Assembly: GCA_038063895.1 (NCBI GenBank)
Contig: JBBTUG010000006.1
Location: forward strand, 6,701 to 70,700
DNA length: 64,000 nucleotides
From: Patescibacteria group bacterium
GTDB lineage: Bacteria > Patescibacteriota > WWE3 > JAMCXX01 > JBBTUG01
Reading direction: 5' to 3'
This document shows positions 9,005 to 64,000 of this stretch, one piece after another. The notes below the pieces were generated by a model, which was not told where the DNA came from, ran no database searches, and was given only the letters and a program-made list of their open reading frames with translations. The translations under genes and the position numbers were made by a program. Positions within the stretch are counted from its first letter, which is position 1, and every line of letters begins with the position of its first letter.

Positions 9005-10849
9005 ATGATTTTAACGGAAACAAAAAAGGGAAACAAAGTAAACAAAAGGAAACTGAAAATGGTATCGGTTATCATAGGTCTCTTGGCCGTTTTCGGCTAT
9101 TTTTTCGCTCTCAGTCCGGTTTTGGCAACGTTACATACCGCAAAACTGCTAACAGCCGATTTCAAATACTTTAAGGACGGAATTATTCTGCAAAATCTTC
9201 CCCAAATGAAAAATGCCATCACCGCCGCCGAAAAAGATGCGAAATCTCTAAAAAATAACTCCCAGCTGCTGGTGTGGCTAAATGTCGTTCCGGTGCTTAA
9301 CGGTTACTACAGTGACCTGGTCAACGGGTCGGAGGCACTTCTGCACGGGGTCCGCGCAGTGGGGTTGGTTCTGGATGCGGCTACGCCTGAGGCCGCCAGT
9401 TTGGGTTTTTCCCCTTCGGGGGCTAAGATTCCGATTTCCGGCCAGGATAGAATTTCCGGCTTGGTTAAAATCGCCCCCCTGCTTAGCGGTCAGTATGAAG
9501 AAATCGCGGCGGAGCTTACGCAAATTCAGAATAGTTTTAACCGGATTGACCCGAATAGATACCCGGAAACCTATTCCGGAAAGCCCCTTCGGGGAATTCT
9601 TACAAGCGTTAGGGATGCTTTGGAAACCGTTGGCGGAAACTCTACCGATCTGAAGGCTTTTCTTGACGCTGTCCCCGAAGTCCTCGGCGCCACCGAGGCT
9701 AAGACTTACTTGGTTCTTTTCCAGAATGATAAGGAGTTGCGTCCGACCGGCGGCTTTTGGACAGCTTACGCGCTCCTTCGGATGGAAAAAGGAAAGATTG
9801 TCAGTATTCAGGCCGGTGATATTTATTTTTTGGATATCGACAACCGTGTGGCTTTTTACCCGACCCCGCCGGCGGTTATCCAAAAATACTTAAAGCTTGA
9901 TAAGTGGTATATCCGAGATACAAATATGTCCCCCGATTTCCGGAAATCGATTGAGCTGTTTAACGAGTTTTGGGCCCGGGTTCCGGGGGTTCCGAAAACG
10001 GACGGCATTTTCGCTATTGATACCGCCTTTGTTCAGGGACTGTTAACGGTTTTAGGAGATATTAAAATACCGAATTACGAAACGTTTACCAGCGAGAATG
10101 TGGTTTATCAGTTGGAGCTGGTGGCAAACGTTTTGGGCAGTCGGGAGGAGAAACGCGGAGGCCGCAAGGATATCATCGGGGTTTTGATGCGGGAGATGAT
10201 GTCGAAAGCTTTCGCCCTCCCGTCCAATCAATACGATAAGATTATCGGGAAAGTAATGGATATGGCCGTGAAGAAACACCTGCTTTTGTATTTTAATAAT
10301 CCTGAAGCCCAGGCGCTGGCGGAGAAATATAATCTGGCCGGGCGGATTAATGATTTCGACGGCGATTATCTTCACGTGAACGATGCGAATTTAGGCGGAC
10401 GGAAAGCGAATATGTATATGAAGGAAGATATAAGCAAAGAGATAAAAATGTTGGGCGGCGGCAAAGAGGTTTTAAGCACGGTGACCGTTGATTATGAAAA
10501 TACCGGCAGTTACAACGCCGATTGGAATACCGGCTATCGGGATTACGTCCGGGTTTATGTTCCGAAAGGCTCCGAGCTGATTTCCGGTTCGGGTTCTTTG
10601 GAAACGATTACCAGCGGCGAAGACTTAGGCCGAACCTACTTCGATGCCTATATGGCCGTCAATCCGTTACAAAAAGCAAAGCTGACTTTAACTTACCGGT
10701 TGCCTTCGGGTCTGATAAAGAACGGACAGCCGTACCAATTGCTTATCCAGAAGCAGCCCGGAACCGACGGGCAGAACTACACGGTTTCTGTTGGAAACAA
10801 GAAAGAAAGTTTTGTTTTAGAGACCGACCGGATTGTGGAAATTAAATAG
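9005..10849 (+). CDS. DUF4012 domain membrane-anchored protein
   Basis: One N-terminal TM helix plus 'FQNDKELRPTGGFWTAYALL', the characteristic DUF4012 E(L)RPTGGF motif. The gene typically neighbours a priming sugar transferase, as it does here. Confidence 0.55.
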   Translation: MILTETKKGNKVNKRKLKMVSVIIGLLAVFGYFFALSPVLATLHTAKLLTADFKYFKDGIILQNLPQMKNAITAAEKDAKSLKNNSQLLVWLNVVPVLNGYYSDLVNGSEALLHGVRAVGLVLDAATPEAASLGFSPSGAKIPISGQDRISGLVKIAPLLSGQYEEIAAELTQIQNSFNRIDPNRYPETYSGKPLRGILTSVRDALETVGGNSTDLKAFLDAVPEVLGATEAKTYLVLFQNDKELRPTGGFWTAYALLRMEKGKIVSIQAGDIYFLDIDNRVAFYPTPPAVIQKYLKLDKWYIRDTNMSPDFRKSIELFNEFWARVPGVPKTDGIFAIDTAFVQGLLTVLGDIKIPNYETFTSENVVYQLELVANVLGSREEKRGGRKDIIGVLMREMMSKAFALPSNQYDKIIGKVMDMAVKKHLLLYFNNPEAQALAEKYNLAGRINDFDGDYLHVNDANLGGRKANMYMKEDISKEIKMLGGGKEVLSTVTVDYENTGSYNADWNTGYRDYVRVYVPKGSELISGSGSLETITSGEDLGRTYFDAYMAVNPLQKAKLTLTYRLPSGLIKNGQPYQLLIQKQPGTDGQNYTVSVGNKKESFVLETDRIVEIK

Positions 10850-10893
10850 TTACCCCGTTTCCGTTTTCTTCCCGCTGTTATACTTAGTTTATT

Positions 10894-11445
10894 ATGCCCT
10901 CATTTCAAGCTGACGGAATCATCGTGAAAAGAATTAATTTCGGCGAGAAAGATAAGATTCTCACTGTGATTACGCGCGATAGTGGAAAAATAAAGACGTT
11001 GGCTAAAGGAATCAGGCGGATTAACAGCCGCCGGGCGGGTAACGTCGAGCTATTTAATTTTGCCCGGCTGCATCTGGCTGTCGGGCGGACTTTTAATATT
11101 TTAACCGAAGCCAAGTTGCTGGAGACTTTCCCGTCGTTTCGGAGTGACCTTAAGAAATCAGCGGCAGCTTTTTATTTTTCCGAATTAGCCGACCGCTTTG
11201 TTCCGGAAGATCAGGAAAACCGGGAGTTATTTTTCATCCTGCTTGCCGCATTCCGGAAGTTAGAGAGCACCCAAAGTATCCAGATGGAGTTTATCCGTGA
11301 GTTTGAGGGCCGATTGCTGGAGCACACCGGTTTTGGCCATGACCGGGAATTTGAGCCCGAAAAACCCTATTTGATGCTGGAGAAAGTGCTGGGAAGGAAC
11401 CTACCTTCCCGCCTTTTTCTAGACCGGGTCTGGGGTATGGAATAA
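10894..11445 (+). CDS. recO: DNA repair protein RecO (short form)
   Basis: N-terminal OB-fold motif 'GIIVKRINFGEKDKILTVITRDSGKIKTLAKGIRR'. 183 aa. Confidence 0.6.
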   Translation: MPSFQADGIIVKRINFGEKDKILTVITRDSGKIKTLAKGIRRINSRRAGNVELFNFARLHLAVGRTFNILTEAKLLETFPSFRSDLKKSAAAFYFSELADRFVPEDQENRELFFILLAAFRKLESTQSIQMEFIREFEGRLLEHTGFGHDREFEPEKPYLMLEKVLGRNLPSRLFLDRVWGME

Positions 11446-23871: not shown

Positions 23872-25283
23872 TGACCCTCCAGGAACTGAAGGATAAAAAA
23901 ATTGCGATTCTCGGATGCTCGATTGAGGGCCTATCCTCAGCTAGGTTTCTTTTAACTCACGGAATCAGTTTTACGGTTTTGGATAAACAGTGTTTGTCTG
24001 AATTAGGAGAAGAAGCCTTACAGTTATCTGGTAACCAATTAATTAATTGGGAACTTGGCGAAAATCATTTAGACCGCCTCGAAGATTTTGAGGTTATCTT
24101 CCGCACTCCCGGTTTTCCTTTGTGGAATCAACGTTTGCAGGCGGCCCTTGCCGCCGGGGCCGAGGTTACTTCCCAGACTAAATTATTCTTTAGTCTCTGT
24201 CCGTGTCCGGTGATCGGAGTTACCGGAACTAAAGGGAAAGGAACAACAGCCACCCTCATTTCTCTGATGCTTAAAAAATCCGGCCGAGATGTTTACCTGG
24301 GCGGGAATATCGGGACTCCTCCGCTTGATTTTCTAGATAAGTTAAATCCCAGTTCCTTTGCGGTTTTAGAATTAAGTTCGTTTCAGCTCGAGGATCTTAA
24401 GGTCAGTCCAAAAATCGCCGTAGTTTTATTGATCACGGCGGATCACCTAGTCTCGCAGTCTTCGGAAAGTCCCAACTATCACAAGACGGTAAAGGAGTAT
24501 GTCACGGCCAAAAAGAAACTGGTTCAGTTTCAAACAATTTCGGATACGGCGGTTATTAGCGCAGATTGGGAAACCAGTTTAGCGATGGAAAAGGAAACAG
24601 CGGCGGAGGCGTATTTTTTCAGCCGACAGCGCGAGGTTAAGCGGGGAACCTTCGTCCAGGATAAAACGATTATTTTTGTTGAACAAGGCAGGAAGGAAGA
24701 TATTATCTCTGTTTCGGAGTTGCTTCTGCGCGGAGAGCACAACTGGGAGAACGTTTGCGCGGCCGTGACCGTCGCAAAATTGTGCAAGGTGGAAAATACG
24801 GCAATTAGCTCGGTGCTTCGGACTTTTAGAGGTTTAGCGAACCGCCTGGAGTTTGTTGCTAGTGCGGGTGGAGTTAATTATTACAATGACTCTTTTTCCA
24901 CGACTCCGGAAACGGCCGTTGCCGCCCTGCGCGCATTTTCTGAGCCGCTGATTATTATTCTCGGCGGATCGGAAAAAGGGTCTGATTATACAGAGCTTGG
25001 CCGGGAACTTCACGAGGCGAAAAACTTAAAAGCCGTTATTCTGATCGGAAATACGGCCGGTAAAATTGAGTCAGCGGTGGTCCGCGCGGGAGGTTTCCCT
25101 CCGAAAATTGAAGTTATAAAAAATCTGCCGGATATGCCGTCAATTGTTTCCGCGGCAGCGAAAATTTCAGCACCCGGAGATGTTGTTCTTCTCTCGCCCG
25201 CCTGCGCCTCTTTCGATATGTTTAAAAATTATAAGGAACGCGGAAATCAATTTACACTGGGGGCTAAAAAAATATGCGCCTAG
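23871..25283 (+). CDS. murD: UDP-N-acetylmuramoylalanine--D-glutamate ligase
   Basis: 'IAILGCSIEGLSSARFL' and a 'GVTGTKGKGTTATLI' P-loop. Confidence 0.85.
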   Translation: MTLQELKDKKIAILGCSIEGLSSARFLLTHGISFTVLDKQCLSELGEEALQLSGNQLINWELGENHLDRLEDFEVIFRTPGFPLWNQRLQAALAAGAEVTSQTKLFFSLCPCPVIGVTGTKGKGTTATLISLMLKKSGRDVYLGGNIGTPPLDFLDKLNPSSFAVLELSSFQLEDLKVSPKIAVVLLITADHLVSQSSESPNYHKTVKEYVTAKKKLVQFQTISDTAVISADWETSLAMEKETAAEAYFFSRQREVKRGTFVQDKTIIFVEQGRKEDIISVSELLLRGEHNWENVCAAVTVAKLCKVENTAISSVLRTFRGLANRLEFVASAGGVNYYNDSFSTTPETAVAALRAFSEPLIIILGGSEKGSDYTELGRELHEAKNLKAVILIGNTAGKIESAVVRAGGFPPKIEVIKNLPDMPSIVSAAAKISAPGDVVLLSPACASFDMFKNYKERGNQFTLGAKKICA

Positions 25284-26827
25284 ATAAACTTCTTGCCGAC
25301 TTCGGAATTACCGAAACAGATGGCGGACCGGAAATTATCGGGATTACTGACGACTCCCGAAAAGTAAAACCAGGATATTTGTTCGTAGCAGTAAAAGGGT
25401 TGGAGCATGATGGGCACAAATACATCGAACAGGCAATTATGGCGGGAGCGTGTGCGGTTGTGTTCGATGTAAAGTCAAAAGTTTCCGCCCAAGGCGGATC
25501 CGCCGAGGGAGGAAAAAGTCAAAAGTCAAAATTTTCAGGCACTATTTTCGTGGGTGTGAGAGGTTCAAGAAAGGCCCTAGGGCTTCTTTGGGCGGCGTGG
25601 TACGGGTATCCGGCCAAATCGTTAAGAGTCATCGGTGTGACCGGGACGGACGGAAAAACAACGACAGCTAACCTTATCTACCACCTGTTGAAATCGGCCG
25701 GAAAAAAAGTTGGCCTAATCTCGACGATCAACGCTCAAATCGGGAACGATAGTTTTGAGACCGGTTTCCACGTGACCAACCCGGAGCCGGAGTTGCTCCA
25801 AAAGTTTTTAAGATTAATGGTTGATCGGGGCACGGAGTTTGCGGTTTTGGAAGTAACCTCGCACGGAATTGATCAGGAACGGATTGCCGGAATCGGTTTT
25901 GAGATTGCCGTGGTTACGAACGTGGCGCGGGAGCATCTCGATTACCACAAAACGTATGAAAATTATCTAAATACAAAAGGGCGTCTACTCGCTTCCGACA
26001 AGGTAAGTATTCTCAATCGGGACGACAGCTCCTTCTCTTATTTAAAGAGTGTTTCCGGAGGCGAGGTGCTCAGCTACGGCATTCACCAAAAAGCTGATTT
26101 TCAAGCCACCAAGGTTACGCTACTTGGGGAATCCGCCGTATTTACCTTGGAGCCCGGTTCCGTTGAAGTAAAAATTAATCTGCCCGGAGAATACAATATC
26201 GCTAACGCTCTTGCGGCGGCGGCCGCGGCCTTCACTGTTGGGCTGAGTGGGAAGCAAGTCGCTGCAGGGCTTCAAAGTTTCCAGACGCTTCCGGGGAGGT
26301 TTGAGGAGATAAAGACCGGACGGGATTTCCGGGTCGTGGTGGATTTCGCGCATACGCCCAACGCGCTTGAGAGTGTCCTGTCTATTAGCCGTAAAATCCT
26401 GATCATACCCACACCCTTAGGGTCAAGGCTTCCCGACCCTAAGGACGAGAAACCGCAAGAGCCAAAATTAATTGTAGTTTTCGGGTGCGCGGGGGAACGG
26501 GACAGTGGGAAGCGGCCGCTGATGGGTGAGATTGCAGGCCGGTTGGCGGATATCTCGATCCTGACCGCGGAGGATCCCCGGCGCGAGGATGTTAACGGAA
26601 TTATTGAGCAAATTGCTGCGGGATGCCAAAAATCGGGTGAGCATATATTTATTAAAGAACCTGACCGGCGGAAGGCGATCGAATTGGCAATAAATATGGC
26701 CAAGGCCGGCGACTTAATTATTATCACCGGCAAGGGGCACGAGAAATCAATGTGCTTCGGGACAACAGAGTATCCGTGGAGTGATCAGGAAGTAGCAAAG
26801 GGTATTTTAGAAAGGAATAACAAATAA
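25274..26827 (+). CDS. murE: UDP-N-acetylmuramoyl-L-alanyl-D-glutamate--2,6-diaminopimelate (or L-Lys) ligase; carries in-frame repeat insertions
   Basis: 'VIGVTGTDGKTTTANLI' P-loop and 'VTNVAREHLDYH'. An 'EDPRRED' motif retains the Arg typical of DAP-type enzymes. Confidence 0.85.
   Translation: MRLDKLLADFGITETDGGPEIIGITDDSRKVKPGYLFVAVKGLEHDGHKYIEQAIMAGACAVVFDVKSKVSAQGGSAEGGKSQKSKFSGTIFVGVRGSRKALGLLWAAWYGYPAKSLRVIGVTGTDGKTTTANLIYHLLKSAGKKVGLISTINAQIGNDSFETGFHVTNPEPELLQKFLRLMVDRGTEFAVLEVTSHGIDQERIAGIGFEIAVVTNVAREHLDYHKTYENYLNTKGRLLASDKVSILNRDDSSFSYLKSVSGGEVLSYGIHQKADFQATKVTLLGESAVFTLEPGSVEVKINLPGEYNIANALAAAAAAFTVGLSGKQVAAGLQSFQTLPGRFEEIKTGRDFRVVVDFAHTPNALESVLSISRKILIIPTPLGSRLPDPKDEKPQEPKLIVVFGCAGERDSGKRPLMGEIAGRLADISILTAEDPRREDVNGIIEQIAAGCQKSGEHIFIKEPDRRKAIELAINMAKAGDLIIITGKGHEKSMCFGTTEYPWSDQEVAKGILERNNK
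26412..26447 (+). repeat. 36-bp palindromic element, copy A (in-frame inside murE)
   Basis: Arms 'ccttagggtc'/'gaccctaagg' with loop 'aaggcttccc'. It encodes PTPLGSRLPDPK. Confidence 0.8.
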
Positions 26828-45072: not shown

Positions 45073-47952
45073 ATGAGCAAAATTGAAGCCGTTCCCGATT
45101 TTCCCCTGAATGAAAGAGAAACTCTTGCGGGTTGGAAAAAAGACGGAGTGGAAAAGAAATATTTAGCCAGAAATGAGTCTTCCCCGAAGCGGTTCCGGTT
45201 TATCGATGGCCCAATTACGGCTAATAACCCGATGGGGGTTCACCACGCCTGGGGCCGGACCTACAAAGATTTTTTCCAGCGTTATAAAAATATGCAGGGC
45301 TTTGCCCAGAGGTTCCAGAACGGTTTTGACTGCCAAGGTCTTTGGCTCGAGGTTGAAGAGGAAAAGAGCCGGGGCTTTAATTCGAAGAAAGACATTGAAA
45401 ATTTCGGCTTGGCTAACTTCAGCCATGCCTGCCGGGCCCGGGTCGAGAAATATTCCGCCATTCAAACTGAACAATCGCAGCGGCTGGGGATGTTTATGGA
45501 TTGGGGAAATTCGTATTATACGATGTCCGAGACGAACAACCTTTATATCTGGCACTTTTTAAAAAAATGCAATGAAAAAGGCTGGTTGTATAAAGGCGTG
45601 AACTCGATGCCCTGGTGCGTCCGCTGCGGCACGGCGATTTCCGCTCACGAACTCTCCGACGAAGGTTATAAAATAGTGGAACACGAATCAGTTTACGTGA
45701 AGTTTCCGTTAGTTTCGGACGATTCCAAATCCACGGCAACAAGTCTTCTAATTTGGACAACGACGCCTTGGACGCTTCTCGCCAATGTGGCCGTGGCCGT
45801 GAATCCCGATTATTCCTACGTTAAAATCAGAACGGAAAGCCGGCCGGAAGAGTTATTAATCGTAGCCGAAAACCGTCTTTCCGTAATCCCGGACGGCTAC
45901 CAGGTGCTTGAAAAAATCGCGGGGAAAGACCTGGTTGGGAAGACTTACCGTGGGCCTTTTGATGAACTAGGGGCGCAAAAAGAAGTGCAGCACCGGGTAA
46001 TTGACTGGCCGGAAGTTTCGGAAACGGAGGGAACGGGACTGGTGCACATCGCTCCCGGCGCCGGCGAGGAGGACTTTATATTAGGGAAAAAATTTAAACT
46101 CCCGGTTTTGGCGCCGCTTGATGAGTTTGGGATTTACTTGCCCGGTTACGGCGAATTTACCGGTAAGGATGCCCGCCGGATTAATGCCGAAGTGTTTGCT
46201 TCTCTGGAAGCGAAAAAATTCCTTTTTAAAACCGAAAAAATAAAACACAGTTATCCGCATTGCTGGCGGTGTAAGGAGCCGTTGGTTTTCCGGGTGACGG
46301 AGGAGTGGTTTATTAAGGTTGACCCGATTCGTCCTCTGCTAAAGCAGCTAACTGAAAAGATTGACTGGCGGCCGGATTACGTCGGGAAAAGGATGCAGGA
46401 TTGGTTGTTGAATATGAACGACTGGCCGATCTCCCGCCGGCGATATTGGGGGCTGGCGCTGCCGTTTTATGAATGTCCGAATAATCACTTAACTGTCGTC
46501 GGTTCGAAAGAAGAACTAAGACAGTTGGCGGTGGAGCCGGAAAAGGTTGACCACTTGCCGGAACTGCACCGGCCGTGGATTGATGAGATAAAAATTAAAT
46601 GTCCGCAGTGCGGGACGACAGTGGCCCGGGTGAGTTACGTCGGTGACTGCTGGCTGGACGCGGGGATCGTTTCCTTTTCGACTTTAAAGTACCTCGAGGA
46701 TAAAAGTTATTGGGAGAAATGGTTTCCGGCGGAAATGGTGACGGAATACGTGGCCCAGGTGAAACTTTGGTTTTACTCCCTACTTTTTATGGCCGCGACT
46801 CTTGAAGAAAGAGCGCCTTTTGAGAAAGTTTTTACCGACGGGTATGTGGTGGATGAAAAAGGGGAAGTGATGCATAAATCGAAAGGGAATGCGATCTGGT
46901 TTGACGAGGCGGTGGAGAAGATGGGGGCGGATATTATGCGCTGGGTTTATATGCGCGCCGATAATGCTAAGGATATAAGGTTCGGTTACGGCATTGGTGA
47001 CGAGGCCCGCCGGCGTTTTTTCCTGATTTTATGGAATAGCCTGAAGTTCGTGCTGGATAACCGGGAGGTTGACGGAGTGCCGGTAGGGAAGTTATCGCAG
47101 GGGGTTGGAAAATCACTGCCGGTCCTCGACCGCTGGATTCTATCCCGCCTCAACAGCACGCTAAAGCTGGTGACAGAGGCGAATGATGATTATCACCCCC
47201 AGCCCGGGGCGTTGGCGATTGAAGGTCTGGTAAATGACTTATCCACCTGGTATATAAGGCGCAGCCGCAACCGGGTCGGACCGGCGGCGGAAAATCAGGA
47301 GGATAAAGAGTCTTTTTACCAAACCGCTAATTCCGTTTTTTCGGTTCTGGTCAGGATGCTCTCTCCGTATACGCCTTTCTGGGTCGAGCGGATTTATAAA
47401 TACTTGGGCGGGGAAAAGCTCTCGGTTCATCTTGAAGACTGGCCGGTTGTAGAGGAACTACGGATTGATGCTGAGCTTGAAAAGGAAATGGCGTTAGTCC
47501 GGCAGATTTGCGAGGCGGGTCACGCGGCGCGGAAAGCCGCTAAAATTAAAGTCCGACAGCCACTTGCTTCGCTCGATGTCAAAGTTTCCACCAAAGGTGG
47601 ATCCGCCTTGGGCGGACAAAATTCAAGATTAATAATTTCTGAAGATATAAAAAAACTTGTACTGGCGGAGCTTAACGTGAAACAGCTGAAGTTTACCGAA
47701 GAGGCGGGTCTGAAAGAGATGACGGTGGAATATGATTTGAATATCACTCCTGAACTGAAAGCTGAGGGCGAGGCGCGGGAGCTGATCCGTTCTATTCAGG
47801 AGCTGCGGAAAGAAAAAGGCTGCCGGCTGACGGACAAGATTGTGGTTTCGGCGTCGGCCTGGCCGGAGGCTTTTGAAGCCCTAATTAAGCGGGAAACTTT
47901 AACGGCAGAACTAAAACAGTCCTCCGATCCTCTTTCCATCACAGTTTTATAA
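45073..47952 (+). CDS. ileS: Isoleucine--tRNA ligase (type 2-like; atypical HIGH region 'GVHHAWG', KMSKS as 'MHKSKGN')
   Basis: 'KDFFQRYKNMQGF', 'FDCQGLWLEVE', 'DWPISRRRYWGLALPFYEC' and a zinc-binding 'CPQCG'. 959 aa. Confidence 0.75.
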   Translation: MSKIEAVPDFPLNERETLAGWKKDGVEKKYLARNESSPKRFRFIDGPITANNPMGVHHAWGRTYKDFFQRYKNMQGFAQRFQNGFDCQGLWLEVEEEKSRGFNSKKDIENFGLANFSHACRARVEKYSAIQTEQSQRLGMFMDWGNSYYTMSETNNLYIWHFLKKCNEKGWLYKGVNSMPWCVRCGTAISAHELSDEGYKIVEHESVYVKFPLVSDDSKSTATSLLIWTTTPWTLLANVAVAVNPDYSYVKIRTESRPEELLIVAENRLSVIPDGYQVLEKIAGKDLVGKTYRGPFDELGAQKEVQHRVIDWPEVSETEGTGLVHIAPGAGEEDFILGKKFKLPVLAPLDEFGIYLPGYGEFTGKDARRINAEVFASLEAKKFLFKTEKIKHSYPHCWRCKEPLVFRVTEEWFIKVDPIRPLLKQLTEKIDWRPDYVGKRMQDWLLNMNDWPISRRRYWGLALPFYECPNNHLTVVGSKEELRQLAVEPEKVDHLPELHRPWIDEIKIKCPQCGTTVARVSYVGDCWLDAGIVSFSTLKYLEDKSYWEKWFPAEMVTEYVAQVKLWFYSLLFMAATLEERAPFEKVFTDGYVVDEKGEVMHKSKGNAIWFDEAVEKMGADIMRWVYMRADNAKDIRFGYGIGDEARRRFFLILWNSLKFVLDNREVDGVPVGKLSQGVGKSLPVLDRWILSRLNSTLKLVTEANDDYHPQPGALAIEGLVNDLSTWYIRRSRNRVGPAAENQEDKESFYQTANSVFSVLVRMLSPYTPFWVERIYKYLGGEKLSVHLEDWPVVEELRIDAELEKEMALVRQICEAGHAARKAAKIKVRQPLASLDVKVSTKGGSALGGQNSRLIISEDIKKLVLAELNVKQLKFTEEAGLKEMTVEYDLNITPELKAEGEARELIRSIQELRKEKGCRLTDKIVVSASAWPEAFEALIKRETLTAELKQSSDPLSITVL

Positions 47953-56547: not shown

Positions 56548-56575
56548 ATGAAACAATGAAACAATGAAACCATGA
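56548..56575 (+). repeat. Tandem 'ATGAAAC' repeat (x3) forming three overlapping mini-ORFs (MKQ*, MKQ*, MKP*) whose last TGA overlaps the ATG of the downstream gene
   Basis: 'atgaaacaatgaaacaatgaaaccATGAgaatt'. ATGs at 56548, 56556, 56564 and 56572, with a TGA overlapping each next ATG. Confidence 0.6.
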
Positions 56576-57750
56576 GAATTACTAAGGCATTTCTCTACAT
56601 TTTTATTTTATCGCTGACCCTTGGACAACTGGGCAGTTACCGGTTTGGGGAGGGTGTGGTTTATATCTCGGATTTACTGCTGGCGGCTTTAATCGTCATC
56701 TGGCTGCTGGAAAGTTTTTTGGTTATCCGTTCCTTAAGACTTGAGCGTAAGGGGATTTTTATCTTTTTGTTCGGGGTGGTTTCCCTCCTAACCCTTCTTA
56801 ATGCCACCAGGTTTTTCAGCTCCGCCGAAATTATTACTGGCAGTTTGTACTGGTTCCGTTGGGTCGCTTATGCGCTTGTTTATTTCCTGGTTCGGGATTT
56901 AATCACCAAAGGAGAAAAGATTCGTGAGCCGATCATATTTCTTTTAATTGTTGACGGCCTTTTTCTGGCTCTGTCTGGTTTTATCCAATTGGCGGTTATT
57001 CCGGATTTCCGCCTCCAGGCGGTGGAATCAGGCTGGGACCCACACAAAAACCGTCTGCTTTCGACCTTTTTCGACCCGAATTTTACCGGGGCTTTTTTGT
57101 CTTTAACTTTGAGTTTAGTCATCAGCCGGCTTTTTTCGCCGGGGCGAAAATTGCTCTACGTTGTGGCTTTACCAGTTCTTCTATTAGCCCTTCTCCTAAC
57201 CTTCTCCCGCAGTGCCTGGCTGATGTTCGGCGTGATTATCCTGGTCTTCGGCCTTCTCCGTTCCCGTTGGCTCTTATTGCTCGCCGTTTTTCTCGCTTTC
57301 TCCGCCTACTTTTTCGTGCCCCGGGTGCAGACCCGACTTTCGGGGGTAACGGATCCGGCCGATTCCGCTCACTTTCGGCTCATCTCGTGGAATAATACTT
57401 TGAAAATCGCCGGCGACTATCCGCTCAGTGGCGTCGGGTTTAATCTTTTCCGCTACGCCCAGGCTGATTACGGCTTCTTCGGTTTTCGCGATCCCTCGGG
57501 AGGGCACGCCGGGGCCGGTTCCGATTCCAGCTGGCTTTTGGTTCTCGCTACCACCGGTGTTTTCGGGTTTCTAATTTTCAGTCTGCTATATTTACGTCTT
57601 TTATTGGAAAGCTGGAAGGCTCGAGGCACTGTCGTTGGTTTGGCGCTTCTGGCGGCTTTAGCGGGATTAGTAGTCGAAACCAACTTCATCAATGCTCTTT
57701 TTTATGTGCCCATAATGTCATGGGTCTGGCTTGTGGCAGCGCTTCTATAA
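56572..57750 (+). CDS. O-antigen ligase/polymerase-like (Wzy_C family) membrane protein
   Basis: 392 aa and polytopic. 'LTFSRSAWLMFGVIILVFGLL' and 'YPLSGVGFNLFRYAQADYGFFGFRDPSGGHAGAGSDSSWL' are Wzy_C-like. Confidence 0.6.
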   Translation: MRITKAFLYIFILSLTLGQLGSYRFGEGVVYISDLLLAALIVIWLLESFLVIRSLRLERKGIFIFLFGVVSLLTLLNATRFFSSAEIITGSLYWFRWVAYALVYFLVRDLITKGEKIREPIIFLLIVDGLFLALSGFIQLAVIPDFRLQAVESGWDPHKNRLLSTFFDPNFTGAFLSLTLSLVISRLFSPGRKLLYVVALPVLLLALLLTFSRSAWLMFGVIILVFGLLRSRWLLLLAVFLAFSAYFFVPRVQTRLSGVTDPADSAHFRLISWNNTLKIAGDYPLSGVGFNLFRYAQADYGFFGFRDPSGGHAGAGSDSSWLLVLATTGVFGFLIFSLLYLRLLLESWKARGTVVGLALLAALAGLVVETNFINALFYVPIMSWVWLVAALL

Positions 57751-58233
57751 GTCAAAATTCAAAAATGTCTCCTGTCATCCTGAGGAGTCAACGACGAAGG
57801 ATCTCTGACCTTGTGTCAGGCTTTCAACTGATTCCAATCTCAATAAAATCCGGGTTAGTTTCTTGAATTAGTCTCATCTTTTTTTGTCTGGTCCATCCTT
57901 TTAGTTCTTTCTCTCGCGCTATGGCTTCAAGCGGGTTGTTGTAATTTTCAACGTATATCAGTTTGTTAATGTTGTATCTCTTTGTAAATCCATCAACCTT
58001 TTTATTTTTGTGCTCCCAAATTCTTCGGCTAAGATTACTTGTTATTCCGATGTAAAGTGTTGCGGATAGGTTGGTGAGGATATAGACATAGAACGTTTTG
58101 TCCATTTAGTTAAGTTTAAGCACTAGGACGCCCATTCGGGCGAGATCCTTCCCTTCCTTCGGCCCTTGGCGAAGTCCGGTCAGGATGACTTAAAGTCACT
58201 TTTTAATTTTGAATTGAACTTTTGAATTTTGAC
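57751..58233 (+). mobile_element. Candidate small inserted unit: GIY-YIG gene bounded by compound inverted repeats (14-bp outer 'GTCAAAATTCAAAA', 10-bp inner 'GTCATCCTGA')
   Basis: The outer inverted repeat lies at 57751-57764 and 58220-58233 as its reverse complement. The inner repeat lies at 57774-57783 and 58180-58189. 'TTTTGAC' tandem repeats occur at the right end. Confidence 0.3.
57824..58105 (-). CDS. GIY-YIG nuclease domain protein (93 aa)
   Basis: 'FYVYILTNLSATLYIGITSNLSRRIWEHK' contains the GIY...YIG motif and the conserved Arg/Glu. Confidence 0.7.
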   Translation of the reverse strand: MDKTFYVYILTNLSATLYIGITSNLSRRIWEHKNKKVDGFTKRYNINKLIYVENYNNPLEAIAREKELKGWTRQKKMRLIQETNPDFIEIGIS

Positions 58234-58253
58234 TTTTGACTTTTGAATTAGTC

Positions 58254-59012
58254 TTAAAATGTGCGACTGAAGTACACCGTCCGATACACGTCCGTCTTAT
58301 TGCCGGCGATGTCTTCCGCCTCAATGGTTAACTTATTTTCCCCGTCCTTCAGCGAGTAAAGAATCTTAAAGTTGCCCAGCTCGTCCACCACCGCCTGCAA
58401 CTCGTTAACCCGGATCGTCGTATTCGGATCGGTCTTGCCGGCGACCTTGATCTCGCTTTCTTTCTGGTTAAAGGTTGCCCGGTCGGCGGGTTCCAGCAGG
58501 CTTAAAACCGGGGCCTTCTTCTTGTAAATCACCGTGACTACCCGGGACGGCCTACTCTCCGCCCCGCCTTCAATGGAGGCTTTGACGTAAAACTTATTTT
58601 CCCCGTCGGAAAGCGAAATGCTTTCGAAGGAGAAAGTGCCCTCCTTATCAACAACTCGCTTTTCCAATTGTAGGTCATTCACGAAAAGAGTGACGGTCAC
58701 ACCCGGATCGGCGTAACCGGAAATATTTATCGATTCGGCTTTGGTGGCCGTCGGGAGGCTGGTTAGGCGGGGCGAGGCCGGGGTTATTATTCTACTGCGA
58801 GCCGGTGTTGAGGCGTTGCCGGAGAAGCTGATGGTTTTCCAAAAAGTGTCGATGTTGGAGATTATGGCGAGGCCCCAAAAATACATAGCGGCTAAAACGG
58901 CCAGAACAATTAGGAAGCGGAGGCCGATTTTCCGGAACAGCTCCATTTCGGTCGAGATTTCTTTCTTGGCCGGACTGCTGGGGCGATGGAGGTGATAATT
59001 TCCCGCTTTCAT
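58254..59012 (-). CDS. Membrane-anchored extracellular protein with two Ig-like (Big-like) repeats
   Basis: One TM helix, then the repeated units 'ISGYADPGVTVTLFVNDLQLEKRVVDKEGTFSFE' and 'VAGKTDPNTTIRVNELQAVVDELGNFKI'. Confidence 0.45.
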   Translation of the reverse strand: MKAGNYHLHRPSSPAKKEISTEMELFRKIGLRFLIVLAVLAAMYFWGLAIISNIDTFWKTISFSGNASTPARSRIITPASPRLTSLPTATKAESINISGYADPGVTVTLFVNDLQLEKRVVDKEGTFSFESISLSDGENKFYVKASIEGGAESRPSRVVTVIYKKKAPVLSLLEPADRATFNQKESEIKVAGKTDPNTTIRVNELQAVVDELGNFKILYSLKDGENKLTIEAEDIAGNKTDVYRTVYFSRTF

Positions 59013-59090: not shown

Positions 59091-59690
59091 ATGGTCAAAT
59101 TAGTGAATCAGACAATATTTACTGCTCTATTAAAGGAGAAACAGCTCCTAACCTTTACGGCGGCGGACATCTGCGCTCTTTTCGGAGTCAGCGCGGTGGC
59201 AACAGCAGGGTTACTCAACCGCTACACAAAAAGAGGACTTATTCTCCGGATAAAACGGGGGTTTTACGTGTTGGCCGAGGCTTTACCGCCCGATGTTTAC
59301 CTCGCAAATAAAATTTACAGCCCTTCATATATCTCGCTCGAATTTGCATTGTCGTATCACGGGGTTATTCCCGAGACCGTTTACGAAATTACTTCGGTTA
59401 CGACGAAGGCCACCCGTCGGCTGGAAACCCTGGGAAAGGTATTTTCTTATCGGAGAATTAAGAAGTCTGCGTATACCGGGTATGGGACCGAGAAACAAGG
59501 TACAGCCAGTTTTTTTATCGCCGACGCCGAGAAAGCTTTCGTGGATACAAATTACTTCCGGATAATAAACGCGCAGGAACCCTTATCCCGGTTTCATAAG
59601 GATAAAATCAACCCCGAAAAAGCCTTATACTACGCAAAACTGTTTAATAACCTGAAATTGACCAGCATTATTAAAACAACCCTTCAATGA
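59091..59690 (+). CDS. abiEi: Type IV toxin-antitoxin / abortive-infection AbiEi-family antitoxin (transcriptional regulator)
   Basis: 'RGLILRIKRGFYVL...SPSYISLEFALSYHGVIPE' is an AbiEi_4 signature. The gene overlaps the downstream AbiEii. Confidence 0.7.
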   Translation: MVKLVNQTIFTALLKEKQLLTFTAADICALFGVSAVATAGLLNRYTKRGLILRIKRGFYVLAEALPPDVYLANKIYSPSYISLEFALSYHGVIPETVYEITSVTTKATRRLETLGKVFSYRRIKKSAYTGYGTEKQGTASFFIADAEKAFVDTNYFRIINAQEPLSRFHKDKINPEKALYYAKLFNNLKLTSIIKTTLQ

Positions 59691-60451
59691 TTAATATTGA
59701 AACACTTGAAAAATTAGCGCGGCAGACTCAGACTAGTGTGTTTCCGAACGTTGTTCGTGAGTATTTTCAGCACGTATTTTTGGCCGAGCTTTACAGGTTA
59801 CCGGAGGCGGGGCGAATCCTTTTTAAAGGTGGTACGGCGCTTCGCGTGGTTTATAACAGTCCGCGTTTTTCGGAGGATTTGGATTTTTCCCTTTTTAGTA
59901 CTCCTTTAAAAAAGGTTACCTCTTTCGTTGAGGACTTATTTGTCCAAGTATTAACTGAGATGGAAAATGCCGGAATAAGGGTTGAACTCGGCGATAAACT
60001 CGGATCGACCAGTGGGGGATATTTTGGTCTGGCCACTTTCCGTATGTTTGAATACCCATTGATCAGTGTGGAATTGAATGTATCGGCGCGAAATATCAGG
60101 GACGTAATTGGGGAAATTGACAGCGTAGCGAACAACTTTGTACCCACCTATACAATTATGCATCTGCCGCAAAAAGAGATCGTTGAAGAAAAAGTTTTTG
60201 GGGCGCTTCGGGATCGTAAAAAACCCCGGGATTTCTACGATTTATATTTTATTATGCGCAGTAACCTTCTTTCCCACGACCAAAAAAAACGATTATCCGG
60301 ACTAAAAGAGCAGATAGTTAGGGATGCAAAAGCTATTAATTTTCGCACCGAGCTTGGGGTATTTTTACCGGCGGATCAGCAGGCGATTATCCGTGATTTT
60401 CCCGCAACACTTGCGCGCGAGCTCAATCGACAGTTAAGCACTTTGAGTTGA
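59687..60451 (+). CDS. abiEii: AbiEii/AbiGii-family nucleotidyltransferase toxin (DUF1814)
   Basis: 'LFKGGTALRVVYNSPRFSEDLDFS' is the NTase motif. Confidence 0.75.
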   Translation: MINIETLEKLARQTQTSVFPNVVREYFQHVFLAELYRLPEAGRILFKGGTALRVVYNSPRFSEDLDFSLFSTPLKKVTSFVEDLFVQVLTEMENAGIRVELGDKLGSTSGGYFGLATFRMFEYPLISVELNVSARNIRDVIGEIDSVANNFVPTYTIMHLPQKEIVEEKVFGALRDRKKPRDFYDLYFIMRSNLLSHDQKKRLSGLKEQIVRDAKAINFRTELGVFLPADQQAIIRDFPATLARELNRQLSTLS

Positions 60452-60502
60452 TAATGGCTGTAAATTATTGACAATATATAATAAGTACGTTATAATGTAC
60501 GT

Positions 60503-60865
60503 ATGGATACTAAAACCACCCTCTCGATCTCCCAAGCCCGCAAAGTCATTTTTTCAATCGCCGAAAAAGTCCAAAGGCCTGGCGCTTACTACACTCTGAC
60601 TGAAAAAGGCCGACCGAAGGCTGTCGTTATGTCGGCGCAGGAATTCGAAAATTGGCAAGAGACTCTAGAGGTAATGCAGGAATTTCCGGATTTAAAAAAG
60701 GATATTGTCGAAACGGAATCGGCTGTTAAAAGCGGTGAATACAAAAGCTGGACGACTTTGACGACCCTTTTGGGCCGGGAAGGCTTCGTTGTCGCCGAGA
60801 ATACTCCGAAAAGGTATGCAGTTCCAACTACGACTAAAACCAAGCGCGCAAAAAGAGTTAGATAA
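60503..60865 (+). CDS. Phd/YefM-family type II antitoxin
   Basis: 'ISQARKVIFSIAEKVQRPGAYYTLTEKGRPKAVVMSAQEFENWQETLEVM'. Confidence 0.65.
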   Translation: MDTKTTLSISQARKVIFSIAEKVQRPGAYYTLTEKGRPKAVVMSAQEFENWQETLEVMQEFPDLKKDIVETESAVKSGEYKSWTTLTTLLGREGFVVAENTPKRYAVPTTTKTKRAKRVR

Positions 60866-61067
60866 ACTGGAGAAAACAGCCCGTTATAAGGTTCTGGCGG
60901 CTTTTTCGGAAATCGCTAAGGACCCTTTTGTCGGGAAGAAATTGGAAGGGGAGTTTCGCGGCTGCTACTCTTACCGGGTTTGGCCTTTTAGGATTATTTA
61001 CCTCATCTACAAAAAAGAGCTCCTCGTTCTCGTTATCCGCATCGGTCACCGCCAAGGCGTTTATTGA
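60816..61067 (+). CDS. RelE/ParE-family type II toxin
   Basis: 'FRGCYSYRVWPFRIIYLIYKKELLVLVIRIGHRQ'. The start is set at MQFQ and overlaps the antitoxin 3' end. Confidence 0.65.
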   Translation: MQFQLRLKPSAQKELDKLEKTARYKVLAAFSEIAKDPFVGKKLEGEFRGCYSYRVWPFRIIYLIYKKELLVLVIRIGHRQGVY

Positions 61068-61107
61068 TATATTTTCAGGTCATGCGGTAATATTTAAGAA
61101 CGGAGGT

Positions 61108-61911
61108 ATGACGGAGAACATCTTTGAGAAAATCAAGAATATTAATGAATACGGGCAGGAATTTTGGAGCGCCCGTGATTTGTATAAATTACTTGGTTAC
61201 ACCGAATACGGGAAGTTTCTTCCGGCTATAGAGCGGGCAAAGGAAGCCTGCAAAAACAGTGGGCAGGGTGTAGAGGTGCATTTCGCTCACCTGAGCGATA
61301 TGGTTCCCATTGGCTCCGGAGCCGAAAGGTCTGTTGAAAATTTCTCTCTTTCCCGCTATGCCTGTTACCTTATCGCCCAAAACGGTGATCCGCGGAAAGA
61401 AGAGATTGCCAGGGCGCAGACTTATTTTGCGATCCAAACTAGGCGCCAGGAGGTGCAGGAACTGCAAATTGAGGACAGCAAACGCGTATTTCTGCGGGAT
61501 GAGATGAAGGAACACAATAAGGAATTGGCCCAGGCGGCCAAATCCGCTGGTGTTATTAACCATGCCAATTTTCAGGACTTCGGATACATGGGACTTTACG
61601 GGGGTTTAAGGCAAAAAGACATTCATTCCAAGAAGAAACTTAATAAAACTGATGCAATTTTAGACCATATGGGAAGTGAAGAACTCGCGGCTAATCTATT
61701 CCGGGCCACGCAAGCCGCGGCTAAACTTAAGCGGGAAAATATTTTCGGCCAGAGAAATGCCAGCCTGGCCCACTTTAATGTTGGGAAGAAGGTCCGTCAG
61801 ACAATTAGAGAATTGGGCGGCACGATGCCGGAGCATTTACCAACCCCGGAAAACGTAAAAGAATCTAGAAAGCGCCTTAAAAAATCCCCAGGAAAGTTAT
61901 TGTCAACTTAG
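61108..61911 (+). CDS. DinD-like DNA-damage-inducible protein (BRO-N/KilA-N-type N-terminal domain)
   Basis: 'YGQEFWSARDLYKLLGYTEY...SRYACYLIAQNGDPRKEEIARAQTYFAIQTRRQE' matches the DinD family. A strong RBS 'aacggaggt' precedes the ATG at 61108. Confidence 0.5.
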   Translation: MTENIFEKIKNINEYGQEFWSARDLYKLLGYTEYGKFLPAIERAKEACKNSGQGVEVHFAHLSDMVPIGSGAERSVENFSLSRYACYLIAQNGDPRKEEIARAQTYFAIQTRRQEVQELQIEDSKRVFLRDEMKEHNKELAQAAKSAGVINHANFQDFGYMGLYGGLRQKDIHSKKKLNKTDAILDHMGSEELAANLFRATQAAAKLKRENIFGQRNASLAHFNVGKKVRQTIRELGGTMPEHLPTPENVKESRKRLKKSPGKLLST

Positions 61912-62116
61912 TTAATCTCCCAGCCAATTACCCTAGCAAAGAAACAACCTGCCTCGCTGGTCATCGACTCTGAGGCTCAGACTCGAAGAGCAGGCGGGTG
62001 AAGCAATTCTGCAACCCAACTCGAAATATGAGGGGGAAAGGGGTAGAATTATAATAGGCTTAGGAATTCAAAATCATTTTCAAATGAGGTTGGTATTGTT
62101 AGCATGGTCAACTATA

Positions 62117-64000
62117 TGAATACAATATTTGAACAACTTACAGATTTATTAAAAAAAGACGAGCGCCTTGTTTCGCAAGACGACGTATTGTTGAAAAATC
62201 AAACACAGGAATTGGCGCGCAAGAATGATCCGGCGCTCTTAAAACTTTTACTTTCCGACAAAACGATAAAACAGCACTTCCTTTTTGAGGTAGAAAAAAC
62301 GCTGATTTTTGATAAAGAAAAGTTTGTCCGCTTTATCTCCAACAAACAATTTTTGCCGGATTCTTATACTGCTTTCAAAAACAAAATTGGTTTAACTGCT
62401 GGTGATGAGTATGTGAGCGAAAACAAAGAAGTGGTTTTGGTATGGCCTTACAAAGACTGTGTTTTGGAAGGCGGAATGACAAAAGAAGATCAAAAAAGAG
62501 ATGAGATTTTTTATAACGAAACATTAGCGCCGGACGACATCAATCGCTTGCTTGACGCCAAAGTTTTTACCAATTTTAAGCGGTTAGACAAAAAAGGCGA
62601 ACACAAGCTGGACGGTTTCAAGCGCGATGAAAAAGGCACGATTAAAGATAATTTGATTATTAAAGGCAATAACCTACTCGCGCTCGCTTCGCTCAAAAAA
62701 GAATTCGCCGGAAAAGTTAAACTGATTTATATTGATCCGCCGTATTATTTTTCTGAAAAGAAAGATGGAGATACCTTTGCGTATAATTCAAATTTCATAC
62801 TTTCTACCTGGCTAGTTTTTATGAAAAATCGGTTAGAAATTGCCAAAAAACTTCTAGACAAGGAAGGTTCAATATTCGTGCAGATCTCTGATGATGGGGC
62901 TTCTTATTTAAAATTACTAATGGATCAGGTTTTTGGCGTAGAAAATTTTGTAAATGTTATTAGTGTCAGAATGAAAAATATTGCTGGCGCGAGTGGTGGT
63001 GGTGAAGATAAAAAATTAAAGAAAAACATTGAGTTTATATATATTTATTCTTGCAATGAATCTTATTTCAAACCTTTTAATAATATTTACGATTACAAAG
63101 AATTATATGAAGTGGTACAAGAATACAAAGAAAATGAAGTGAGTTGGAAGTACACCTCTGTTTTGTATGACGAGGGTTCAAAGAAATATATAGCACTAGC
63201 AAAAGATGGCGATGGGAATGATATTAAGATATATAAAAGAGTAAATCCTATTTTTAAATCAGTAAATCAAATATCAAAAGAAGAGAAAATATCAGAAAAG
63301 GATGCATATTATAAGTATTCGGATAAAATATATACAACAGCAATGCCGCAGAGTTCTATTAGATTAAGAGTCATGGATGTTCTAGGAGAAAGGGTTAATG
63401 ATGCTGATTTATTTTCAATTGAATATGTCCCGAGGAGTGGAAGAAATAAAGGTAGACCTTACGAACAATTTTATAAAGGTGAAAAACTCAGACTTTTTTC
63501 TTGGCTACGAGATGTTTCTGTGAAAAAAGATGGATTAATTCTTAAAAAAGAATTACAGGGTACATATTGGGACGGATTTAATTTAAACAATCTATCAAAA
63601 GAAGGGAGAGTCCAATTAGAGAATGGGAAAAAACCAGAAGCTTTGCTCCGGAGAATAATTGATATGGCGACAGAAGAAGGCGAAACTGTTTTGGATTACC
63701 ATATTGGTTCGGGGACAACTTGTGCTGTGGCGCACAAAATGGGAAGAAAATACATTGGAATGGAGCAAATTGACGATCAAATGAATAAATCCATAGAAAG
63801 ACTTCATAATGTAATAAACGGAGATGATAGTGGTATATCAAAATCAGTGGATTGGAAGGGAGGAGGAGATTTTGTATATATGGAACTTGCCAAGTGGAAT
63901 GAAGAGTGGATTGAAAAAATTGAAAAAGCTAAGACCGGAAAAGAACTTGCCAAACTTTGGGATGAGATGAAAGAAACCGCCTTTTTAAGCTACAAAGTAG
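62117..64000 (+). CDS. Beta-class DNA N6-adenine/N4-cytosine methyltransferase (Type III Mod-like), 3' truncated by the window end; AT-rich (horizontally acquired)
   Basis: Motif IV 'KLIYIDPPY' lies upstream of motif I 'VLDYHIGSGTTCAVAHKMGRKYIGME'. The frame is still open at 64000. GC content is markedly lower than in the rest of the window. Confidence 0.65.

Follow-up and report, generated by a model that had tools for sequence, protein, structure and literature searches.

What is a gene for a 93-residue GIY-YIG nuclease doing between the end of a polysaccharide locus and a convergent surface-protein gene, and what are the nested inverted repeats that enclose it? The question arises from a 64,000-nucleotide stretch of a Patescibacteria group bacterium (hereafter the window; positions 6,701 to 70,700 of contig JBBTUG010000006.1, assembly GCA_038063895.1), for which an earlier note, made from the letters alone, had proposed a miniature mobile unit resembling a homing endonuclease or a MITE (a miniature transposable element with inverted repeats). 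We find instead that the correct frame is the published Ssn nuclease together with the Ssn-related hairpin motif (SRM; PMC11893778): positions 57751–58253 form an SRM-ssn-SRM cassette of ~0.5 kb, i.e., a GIY-YIG gene of 93 amino acids (aa) bracketed by two inverted hairpin motifs. We consider it highly probable that the protein belongs to the Ssn family and that the cassette was inserted at this site.

The Ssn family was described only in 2025, and both its role outside Neisseria and the actual movement of the motif-gene-motif unit were left open there. Chenal et al. (PMC11893778) characterized N. meningitidis SsnA as a 94-aa single-domain GIY-YIG protein (CDD cd10448) that binds the repeat NTS (CGTCATTCCCGCGMAVGCGGGAATCYRG) solely as single-stranded DNA (ssDNA), in one orientation, and cleaves it a few nucleotides upstream; cutting is governed by GTC, the three bases that directly precede the palindrome, and binding depends above all on the C that follows it. 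Double-stranded DNA and RNA are ignored by SsnA as well as by three tested homologs, and SsnA reduces transformation of N. meningitidis by NTS-bearing DNA ~5-fold (PMC11893778). An SRM lies near 71% of the homolog genes and on both sides of 42%, a layout that the authors likened to an insertion sequence or to a unit of repetitive extragenic palindromes (REPs) and a REP-associated tyrosine transposase (RAYT), with mobility hypothesized, not shown (PMC11893778). The same repeat class had been defined earlier as "CGTC-tagged REPs" with no dedicated enzyme reported (Di Nocera et al. 2013, PMC3733652); CGTC-REPs are thus the repeat class later tied to Ssn.

Layout of the cassette

The flanking genes are convergent: a gene for a Wzy_C protein on the plus strand ends at 57750, and a gene for a Big/Glucodextran_B-domain protein on the minus strand has its stop codon at 58254–58256. 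The features between and at these boundaries are as follows (loci from other genomes carry L numbers):

57748–57750, plus strand: stop codon TAA of wzy, the end of a Wzy_C/O-antigen-ligase-like gene (56572–57750); the cassette starts at the next base.
57751–57772: 3'-side A/T heptad arm (GTCAAAATTCAAAA plus 8 nt), outer repeat partner of 58220–58233; kept in L007 and L170, absent from empty sites.
57773–57805, plus strand (reversed relative to the gene): 3' SRM hairpin, tGTCATCCTGA-ggagtcaacgac-GAAGGATCTC; 91% identical in L007.
57805–57819: small inner hairpin CTGAC-cttgt-GTCAG, abutting the 3' SRM; 3' spacer and hairpin 100% identical in L007.
57824–58105, minus strand: ssn gene, a 93-aa single-domain GIY-YIG nuclease, very probably of the Ssn family (Pfam PF01541, invariant residues, Neisseria homology, AlphaFold model).
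58129–58142: inner hairpin, reading CGCCC-gaat-GGGCG on the minus strand, in the interval from the 5' SRM to the start codon; kept in L007.
58142–58190, minus strand (gene strand): 5' SRM hairpin, aGTCATCCTGA-(28-nt insert with its own stem)-GAAGGATCTC; 88% identical in L007.
58196–58253: 5'-side A/T heptad arm of TTTTGAA/TTTTGAC repeats, containing the outer repeat partner 58220–58235 and a second in-frame TAA at 58248–58250.
58254–58256, minus strand: stop codon of the Big/Glucodextran_B-domain surface protein gene (58254–59012), whose ortholog in L171 (59% identity) lies 36 bp from Wzy.

The outer inverted repeat, GTCAAAATTCAAAA at 57751–57764 with its reverse complement at 58220–58233, had been described as 14 bp long; it is perfect over 16 nt (57749–57764 / 58220–58235). 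The 14-mer does begin directly after the wzy stop codon, as first noted, while the full 16-nt repeat overlaps the last two bases of that TAA (57748–57750). The inner 10-nt repeat GTCATCCTGA is present at 57774–57783 and 58180–58189, and a repeat search returned a third perfect 10-nt inverted pair that had been overlooked, GAAGGATCTC at 57796–57805 and 58142–58151. It follows from this third pair that GTCATCCTGA and GAAGGATCTC are the two halves of one hairpin motif, of which the gene has one copy on either side, the two copies pointing in opposite directions. Read along the gene strand, the order is a heptad arm, GTCATCCTGA-[28 nt]-GAAGGATCTC, a small hairpin, and the gene from ATG to stop, followed by a second small hairpin, GAGATCCTTC-[12 nt]-TCAGGATGAC and the second heptad arm. 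The tandem TTTTGAA/TTTTGAC heptads reported at the right end occupy 58220–58247 and continue in degenerate form from ~58199 to 58249. Both repeats of what had been taken for a compound terminus are therefore real; the inner 10-mer, however, belongs to the conserved hairpin motif, and the heptads are a variable feature of one sub-lineage.

Within the window, the 14-mer has 9 matches at ≤2 mismatches against 1.7 expected, a number reached in 0 of 100 shuffles. Exact GTCATCCTGA is confined to its two cassette sites in the 64 kb. Tandem heptads occur at three places only: both cassette ends and 25518. The strongest evidence that the arrangement exceeds chance is comparative, i.e., the conservation of the whole unit on another contig with other neighbors. 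We also observed that the inner hairpins follow each SRM on its inner side, and that similar GNAT-loop hairpins come after the SRM in other Patescibacteria loci (L025, L091, and L093).

Empty and occupied sites

To find empty and occupied sites, we used relatives of the flanking Wzy protein and their gene contexts (percentages are Wzy identities to the window):

L169, 88%: heptad arm present, then the contig ends.
L170, 70%: occupied; heptad arm and SRM as in the window.
L172, 60–62%: empty, Wzy and Big-domain genes 7 bp apart.
L173, 59%: empty, Wzy and Big-domain genes overlapping by 4 bp.
L171, 58%: empty, with a 36-bp spacer, no SRM and no heptads; Big-domain gene 59% identical.
L178, 51%: no ssn; a small Pro/Thr-rich ORF between the Wzy and Big-domain genes.

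L171 has the same synteny throughout, running from S26 peptidase, Polysacc_synt, GT2, GT4, and Wzy to the convergent Big-domain gene. A further relative (L179, Wzy 49%) has no Big-domain gene adjoining Wzy and is uninformative for the junction. The 97-aa ORF in L178 was considered as a divergent ssn and rejected, being a Pro/Thr/Val-rich low-complexity protein. Four relatives (L171, L172, L173, and L178) thus keep the Wzy/Big-domain pair without the cassette. Synteny of the whole region in relatives, which the earlier note had given as grounds for refutation, is accordingly not what is seen. The cassette is an insertion that separates two convergent stop codons, and the parsimonious reading of this unrooted comparison is one gain within the clade with 70–100% Wzy identity.

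The same block appears in other neighborhoods. Another Patescibacteria contig (L007) encodes a protein (P0002) with 78% identity, flanked by the gene of a TPR protein on one side and a PaaX-like gene on the other. Similarity between window and L007 starts at TAATTCAAAAGTC, which abuts the upstream stop codon, ends at TTTTTGAwTTTTGACTT, which abuts the stop of the convergent downstream gene, and collapses outside these points. Identity amounts to 88–91% in the SRMs, 100% in the 3' spacer and inner hairpin, 83% in the coding sequence (71% at third codon positions), and 59–73% in the heptad arms, compared to 29–49% outside the unit. With SRM and spacer identity above that of third codon positions, the non-coding motifs are more constrained than synonymous sites. 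In a third context (L175/L176), the cassette sits between an unknown gene and atpC.

The original view of a compact inserted cassette rather than an ordinary housekeeping gene is thus upheld by absence at the orthologous junction in four relatives and by sharp edges in L007 and L175/L176. Taken together, the insertion at the Wzy junction and the occurrence of the same unit in other Patescibacteria neighborhoods indicate that the unit spreads as a ~0.5-kb block.

In three independent short-read assemblies (L002, L004, and L005), the contig breaks off where the 3' SRM begins, exactly 26 nt past the ssn stop, and the L169 contig ends inside a 30-nt double hairpin (see below). Such assembly breaks at the motifs are the pattern expected if the motifs are shared by several sequences of a community, as shared repeats break assemblers. 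Beyond the Big-domain gene, positions 59091–64000 carry a toxin-antitoxin/restriction-type run (AbiEi/AbiEii, Phd/ParE, Bro-N, and a type III methylase, the last of these seen in L001); the syntenic L171 has VIT1, NrdR, and NrdD in its place, which marks a second variable region beside the cassette.

Assignment of the protein to the Ssn family

The predicted GIY-YIG identity of the ORF was confirmed with Pfam PF01541 (E 2.3e-15, residues 5–76). In a 33-sequence family alignment, Y8, Y18, R28, H32, E65, and N84 are invariant, and Y8, Y18, and E65 are the counterparts of the positions mutated as Y6A, Y17A, and E64A in N. meningitidis SsnA. The AlphaFold model (pLDDT, the predicted local distance difference test, 91) consists of one beta-beta-alpha-alpha-beta-alpha-alpha domain with the GIY-YIG fold and no DNA-binding domain, and the solved structures nearest to it are UPF0213 proteins, Slx1, and UvrC-N. 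By sequence, a search of the PDB returned only distant UPF0213 proteins (E 6e-5) and no Ssn structure, while NCBIfam, PADLOC, and PHROGs gave sub-threshold matches to the catalytic core only.

The link to Neisseria is direct. A tblastn search of a 7.3-Gb database matched two N. gonorrhoeae chromosomes filed in a plasmid collection (E 6e-14 to 7e-14) at an ssnA locus surrounded by canonical NTS copies, and a pairwise comparison with this ssnA gave 44% identity over 82 aa (E 3e-23). Measured against the N. gonorrhoeae locus, the homology lies within the published threshold of E < 1e-10 (PMC11893778). Proteins 51–58% identical to that of the window adjoin motifs matching 27 of the 28 NTS consensus positions; one of them, from L060 (52% identity, E 9e-34), has the NTS consensus on both sides. 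In one of the N. gonorrhoeae records (strain 2022NG-0032, NZ_CP119142.1 in PLSDB, a 2.17-Mb chromosome labeled plasmid), the ssnA frame at 683–973 of L177 has no in-frame ATG and an ATG at ~696 lies in another frame, so that ssnA may be frameshifted in this strain.

The window protein is identical in several assemblies of a Patescibacteria metagenome-assembled genome (MAG) from Hainich groundwater, and first and second codon positions of ssn are more conserved than the third between window and L007. As for a possible vector, none stood out: the phage collection yielded two weak matches only (39%), and most plasmid matches were to large replicons of rhizobia or sphingomonads, or to chromosomes that had been deposited under the plasmid label.

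Flanking hairpins across the family

We then surveyed, by tblastn, relatives at 44–60% identity from 80 reference genomes, covering nearly all bacterial phyla, together with 80 metagenome loci. Among the 76 reference-genome loci with full flanks, GTCATCCTGA was found upstream (≤1 mismatch) in 39 and TCAGGATGAC downstream (≤1 mismatch) in 26, against a background of ~1%. When all 139 distinct ssn loci were scored for a GTCAY-tagged hairpin, the forward motif was upstream in 96 (69%), the reverse motif downstream in 91 (65%), and both were present in 74, the background for this count being 3.4% per 250-nt strand segment. The stems covary (ATCCT/AGGAT, ATTCT/AGAAT, ATCCC/GGGAT, ATTCC/GGAAT, and ACCCT/AGGGT), with 8 covarying stem variants in all, and other lineages carry GTCATTCCCGCgaagGCGGGAATCC or longer variants. 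At many ssn loci, one flank holds a tandem array of SRMs (as many as 4 in L011) or an inverted pair of them, an arrangement that recalls the head-to-head dimers of CGTC REPs (L011, L059, L069, L014, L025, L029, L061, L096, and L106).

The window system shares with the published one a single-domain GIY-YIG protein of ~94 aa, an inverted motif on both sides, direct homology to an NTS-flanked Neisseria gene, and three motif traits: GTC as the tag, AT at the start of the stem, and a C following the stem. It differs in its motif, which is of the GTCATCCTGA...GAAGGATC type with a 5-bp outer stem and inserts of 12 and 28 nt; in copy number, with 2 copies per 64 kb compared to hundreds per Neisseria genome; in its host, a Patescibacteria MAG from a group unmentioned in PMC11893778; in its extra A/T heptad arms; and in the insertion polymorphism documented here. 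With the CGTC-tagged REPs, i.e., Neisseria dRS3 and Rickettsia RPE-4/RPE-6 (PMC3733652), the common ground is an unpaired (C/T)GTC tag, an AT-first stem, a short unpaired tail, and a frequent head-to-head arrangement. Those repeats, however, number from tens to thousands and combine 8–9-bp stems and 4–5-nt loops with a CCA tail (PMC3733652), whereas the window motif has an (A/T)GTC tag, a 5-bp stem, 12- and 28-nt inserts, a CTC tail, and 2 copies in 64 kb, and so falls outside the REP definition.

REPtrons, in which a RAYT (a Y1/HUH transposase) lies between inverted GTAG-tagged REPs, likewise place a small nuclease gene between inverted copies of a hairpin recognized as ssDNA, and for both systems a domesticated or a selfish nature is conceivable. 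The analogy ends with the layout: the REPtron enzyme is unrelated (HUH/Y1, not GIY-YIG), the tag is another one, and the REPs are multi-copy genome-wide. UPF0213 and Slx1-type GIY-YIG domains (PDB 1zg2, 1ywl, and 6seh) are the closest solved folds, Slx1 being a structure-specific nuclease on branched DNA, but they share only ~23–28% identity with the window protein (E 6e-5 by sequence) and lack associated hairpin repeats.

Heptad arms and a 30-nt double hairpin

Among the 160 loci, the heptads are limited to the closest relatives of the window and are hence not a general Ssn feature. Within this group, the arms move with the cassette in at least three contexts and are missing at empty sites. 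In L175/L176 they are of the TTTTTAA type and direct, compared to the inverted TTCAAAAGTC type; we therefore do not call them terminal inverted repeats, and dropped that designation as a firm claim. They may belong to the block that is transferred, mark a favored target, or serve as A/T regulatory tracts.

A second small element is associated with the heptads. At two window sites, 25484–25513 and 47587–47616, a 30-nt double hairpin (TCCRCC-NNN-GGYGGA, twice) lies amid heptads and in frame within an essential gene. In the MurE gene (25274–26827), the element (TCCGCCcaaGGCGGA TCCGCCgagGGAGGA) adds SAQGGSAEGG; the closest MurE relatives (79% and 61–62% identity) lack exactly this decapeptide and keep the heptad-encoded SKVKSQKSKFS. 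A DNA alignment with L174 gives a precise insertion at a heptad boundary, ...CAAAAGTT|30 nt|AAAAGTC..., with no target duplication, which points to the heptad array as the target. In the IleRS gene (45073–47952), the element (TCCACCaaaGGTGGA TCCGCCttgGGCGGA) is flanked by degenerate heptads and encodes STKGGSALGG, which falls in a loop of variable length bounded by VRQPL and ELNVK; compared with the available relatives, all ≤51% identical, the arrangement is no more than consistent with an insertion.

The same kind of element occurs in the heptad arms of ssn cassettes, at 5851–5880 of L007, where it interrupts the 5'-side arm, at 3486–3512 of L169 (the contig end), and at ~265–294 of L176. The L007 30-mer is TCGACCAGAGGTCGATCCACCTCTGGTGGA, and its first 27 of 30 nt are identical in L169 before the contig ends. 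One further copy of the double hairpin (L067, 4201–4230) is without heptads. As ssDNA the 30-nt hairpins fold strongly (z −3.1 to −4.5). Overall, these patterns suggest that the double hairpin is a small mobile element targeting heptad arrays. It shares with the Rickettsia palindromic elements (PMC3733652) the insertion of short palindromes in frame in protein-coding genes, and differs in being just 30 nt long, in consisting of two abutting 6-bp hairpins that encode a G/S-rich decapeptide, and in landing at A/T heptad boundaries. Other extra segments were seen in the same loops of other Patescibacteria: STLRLRSGQ in IleRS P0369, which looks like a translated SRM-like repeat, and a 19-aa segment in MurE P0248. 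The IleRS and MurE loops may be recurrent landing sites for small repeats.

Possible mechanism and competing explanations

If the window protein behaves like N. meningitidis SsnA and the three tested homologs (PMC11893778), it would bind each SRM when the DNA becomes single-stranded, i.e., during replication, repair, or DNA uptake. By analogy with the Neisseria and Wolbachia enzymes, it would read the GTC tag and the C after the stem and nick 3–4 nt 5' of the tag, at ~58193 (minus strand) and ~57770 (plus strand). With the SRM copies inverted, each strand would be open to cleavage at a single copy, the one at the unit's outer 5' edge, so that the predicted nicks bracket the cassette. On a speculative route, the flanking 3'-OH ends would then prime displacement synthesis through the unit. 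That Ssn itself moves the cassette is, in our estimation, doubtful. The same caution applies to a bolder proposal, which we rate as unlikely: that this is an autonomous 0.5-kb SRM-ssn-SRM mobile element whose sole protein is a 93-aa ssDNA nuclease, that inserts exactly between the stop codons of adjacent genes, and whose heptad arms are the landing pad of the 30-nt element that entered MurE and probably IleRS.

Several observations weigh against reading the locus as an inserted Ssn cassette of this kind. One SRM in cleavable orientation per strand does not by itself give excision, and neither a target-site duplication nor defined termini were found at the cassette ends in the window or in L007; the duplications that the earlier note had listed as a check are thus absent. 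The window holds two SRM copies, both at the gene, and gives no hint of a genome-wide repeat network of the Neisseria kind. The SRM stems are 5 bp long with inserts of 12 and 28 nt, and fold weakly when taken alone as ssDNA: the 3' SRM reaches z = −0.06 against shuffles, and the 5' region z = −2.2, but its minimum-energy fold is without the ATCCT/AGGAT stem. RNA folding of the cassette flanks likewise gave weak or non-significant z-scores, and Rfam returned nothing relevant (whole window at gathering threshold; 57650–58350 at E ≤ 5). Because folding energy gives no support, the hairpin reading rests on covariation across loci. In addition, the direct Neisseria comparison uses the N. gonorrhoeae gene and not N. 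meningitidis SsnA itself, and gain versus loss at the Wzy junction is judged from a small set of relatives with no rooted tree. Finally, the published pattern HGTCWYN(0-2)YYVSBRHN(0-5)WNVSBRGN(0-2)RNCYNB, which canonical NTS controls match, matches neither window hairpin nor the common GTCATCCTGAGCGAAGCGAAGGATCT type. Since it is a search pattern hand-built from 29 genomes and not a functional definition, we read this failure as a motif variant rather than as non-membership.

Given this balance, four other explanations were weighed. A domesticated host function, as proposed for Neisseria, would have the enzyme cut motif-bearing incoming or exposed ssDNA and limit recombination or uptake of related DNA, with the flanking hairpins as relics or regulators rather than as the ends of a mobile element. 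The ~5-fold lower transformation by NTS-bearing DNA seen with N. meningitidis SsnA (PMC11893778) fits such a role, as do an intact gene, conserved catalytic residues, and the stronger conservation of codon positions 1 and 2 compared to 3. The only two motif copies in 64 kb are, however, both at the gene, and the cassette's presence or absence among related genomes, together with its occurrence in unrelated contexts, is easier to reconcile with a selfish or newly acquired unit than with a core function; we regard domestication as possible but rather improbable. The cassette could also be passive cargo, moved by an enzyme supplied in trans that recognizes the heptad arms or other ends and that might move the 30-nt double hairpins as well. 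The arms accompany the cassette in its different contexts and are absent from empty sites, the predicted Ssn nicks fall inside the arms so that the conserved block exceeds the SRM-to-SRM interval, the heptads are the landing site of the 30-nt element, and the L007 contig carries a Y1 transposase (10442–11107). On the other hand, no Y1 transposase was found in the 64-kb window, the arms vary between contexts in sequence and relative orientation and are only 59–73% conserved between window and L007, and ssn cassettes outside the sub-lineage have no heptads, which leaves passive transport an unlikely account.

The two remaining explanations fare much worse. Bidirectional transcription terminators had been named at the outset as the simple alternative, to be preferred if the region proved syntenic in relatives; on this account they would lie between convergent genes, and the GIY-YIG gene would be a housekeeping one of the UPF0213/YhbQ type. 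The left flank does lie next to wzy between convergent stops, and on the gene strand the 3' SRM is succeeded by T-rich stretches; yet a promoter and terminator scan of 57500–58500 placed no terminator-like site in either flank, the whole block is missing in relatives, the same 10-mers stand beside ssn relatives of distant phyla at ~50% protein identity, and UPF0213 proteins are only distant matches (E 6e-5), which makes this very improbable. Still less credible is a free-standing or intron-borne GIY-YIG homing endonuclease of the I-TevI type that spreads by cutting empty alleles. Such enzymes (I-TevI, I-BmoI) share the GIY-YIG catalytic fold and the association with mobile DNA, and the insertion polymorphism and a weak PHROG "homing endonuclease" match (E 2e-4, core only) agree with one. 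They differ, however, in having a linker and a DNA-binding domain, in cutting double-stranded DNA at the cognate empty allele, and in residing in introns or phage genomes, none of which applies here: at 93 aa the protein is too short for the DNA-binding domain required by all characterized GIY-YIG homing enzymes, TIGR01453, the NCBIfam model for group I intron endonucleases, reaches 17.9 bits where its cut-off is 56, there is no intron, intein, or Rfam match, and the insertion contexts are unrelated rather than one cognate target. The homing-endonuclease label consequently had to be given up, with only core matches to phage models behind it, and so did the MITE label: the cassette encodes an intact conserved protein, lacks a target-site duplication, and has termini that, one heptad site apart, do not recur elsewhere in the window. 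We thus retain, as highly probable, an Ssn-family gene in a cassette inserted at the Wzy junction.

Implications for the Ssn family

The Patescibacteria hairpin type is missed by the published pattern, so that counts obtained with this pattern are too low for the system. Sites that are naturally empty or occupied, together with the block in unrelated neighborhoods, provide direct comparative evidence of its gain as a block. In this window no motif copies were seen other than the pair at the gene, which separates the biology of the cassette itself from that of a repeat network spread over the genome, as studied in Neisseria. To users of enzymes, by analogy with the characterized homologs, the locus would offer another candidate pair of ssDNA-specific nuclease and recognition site. 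If the proposal of an autonomous element were true, the cassette would be one of the smallest self-mobilizing units in bacteria; and if Ssn, or repair initiated by Ssn, moves both the cassette and the 30-nt element, it would be the long-missing "transposase" of the CGTC-REP class.

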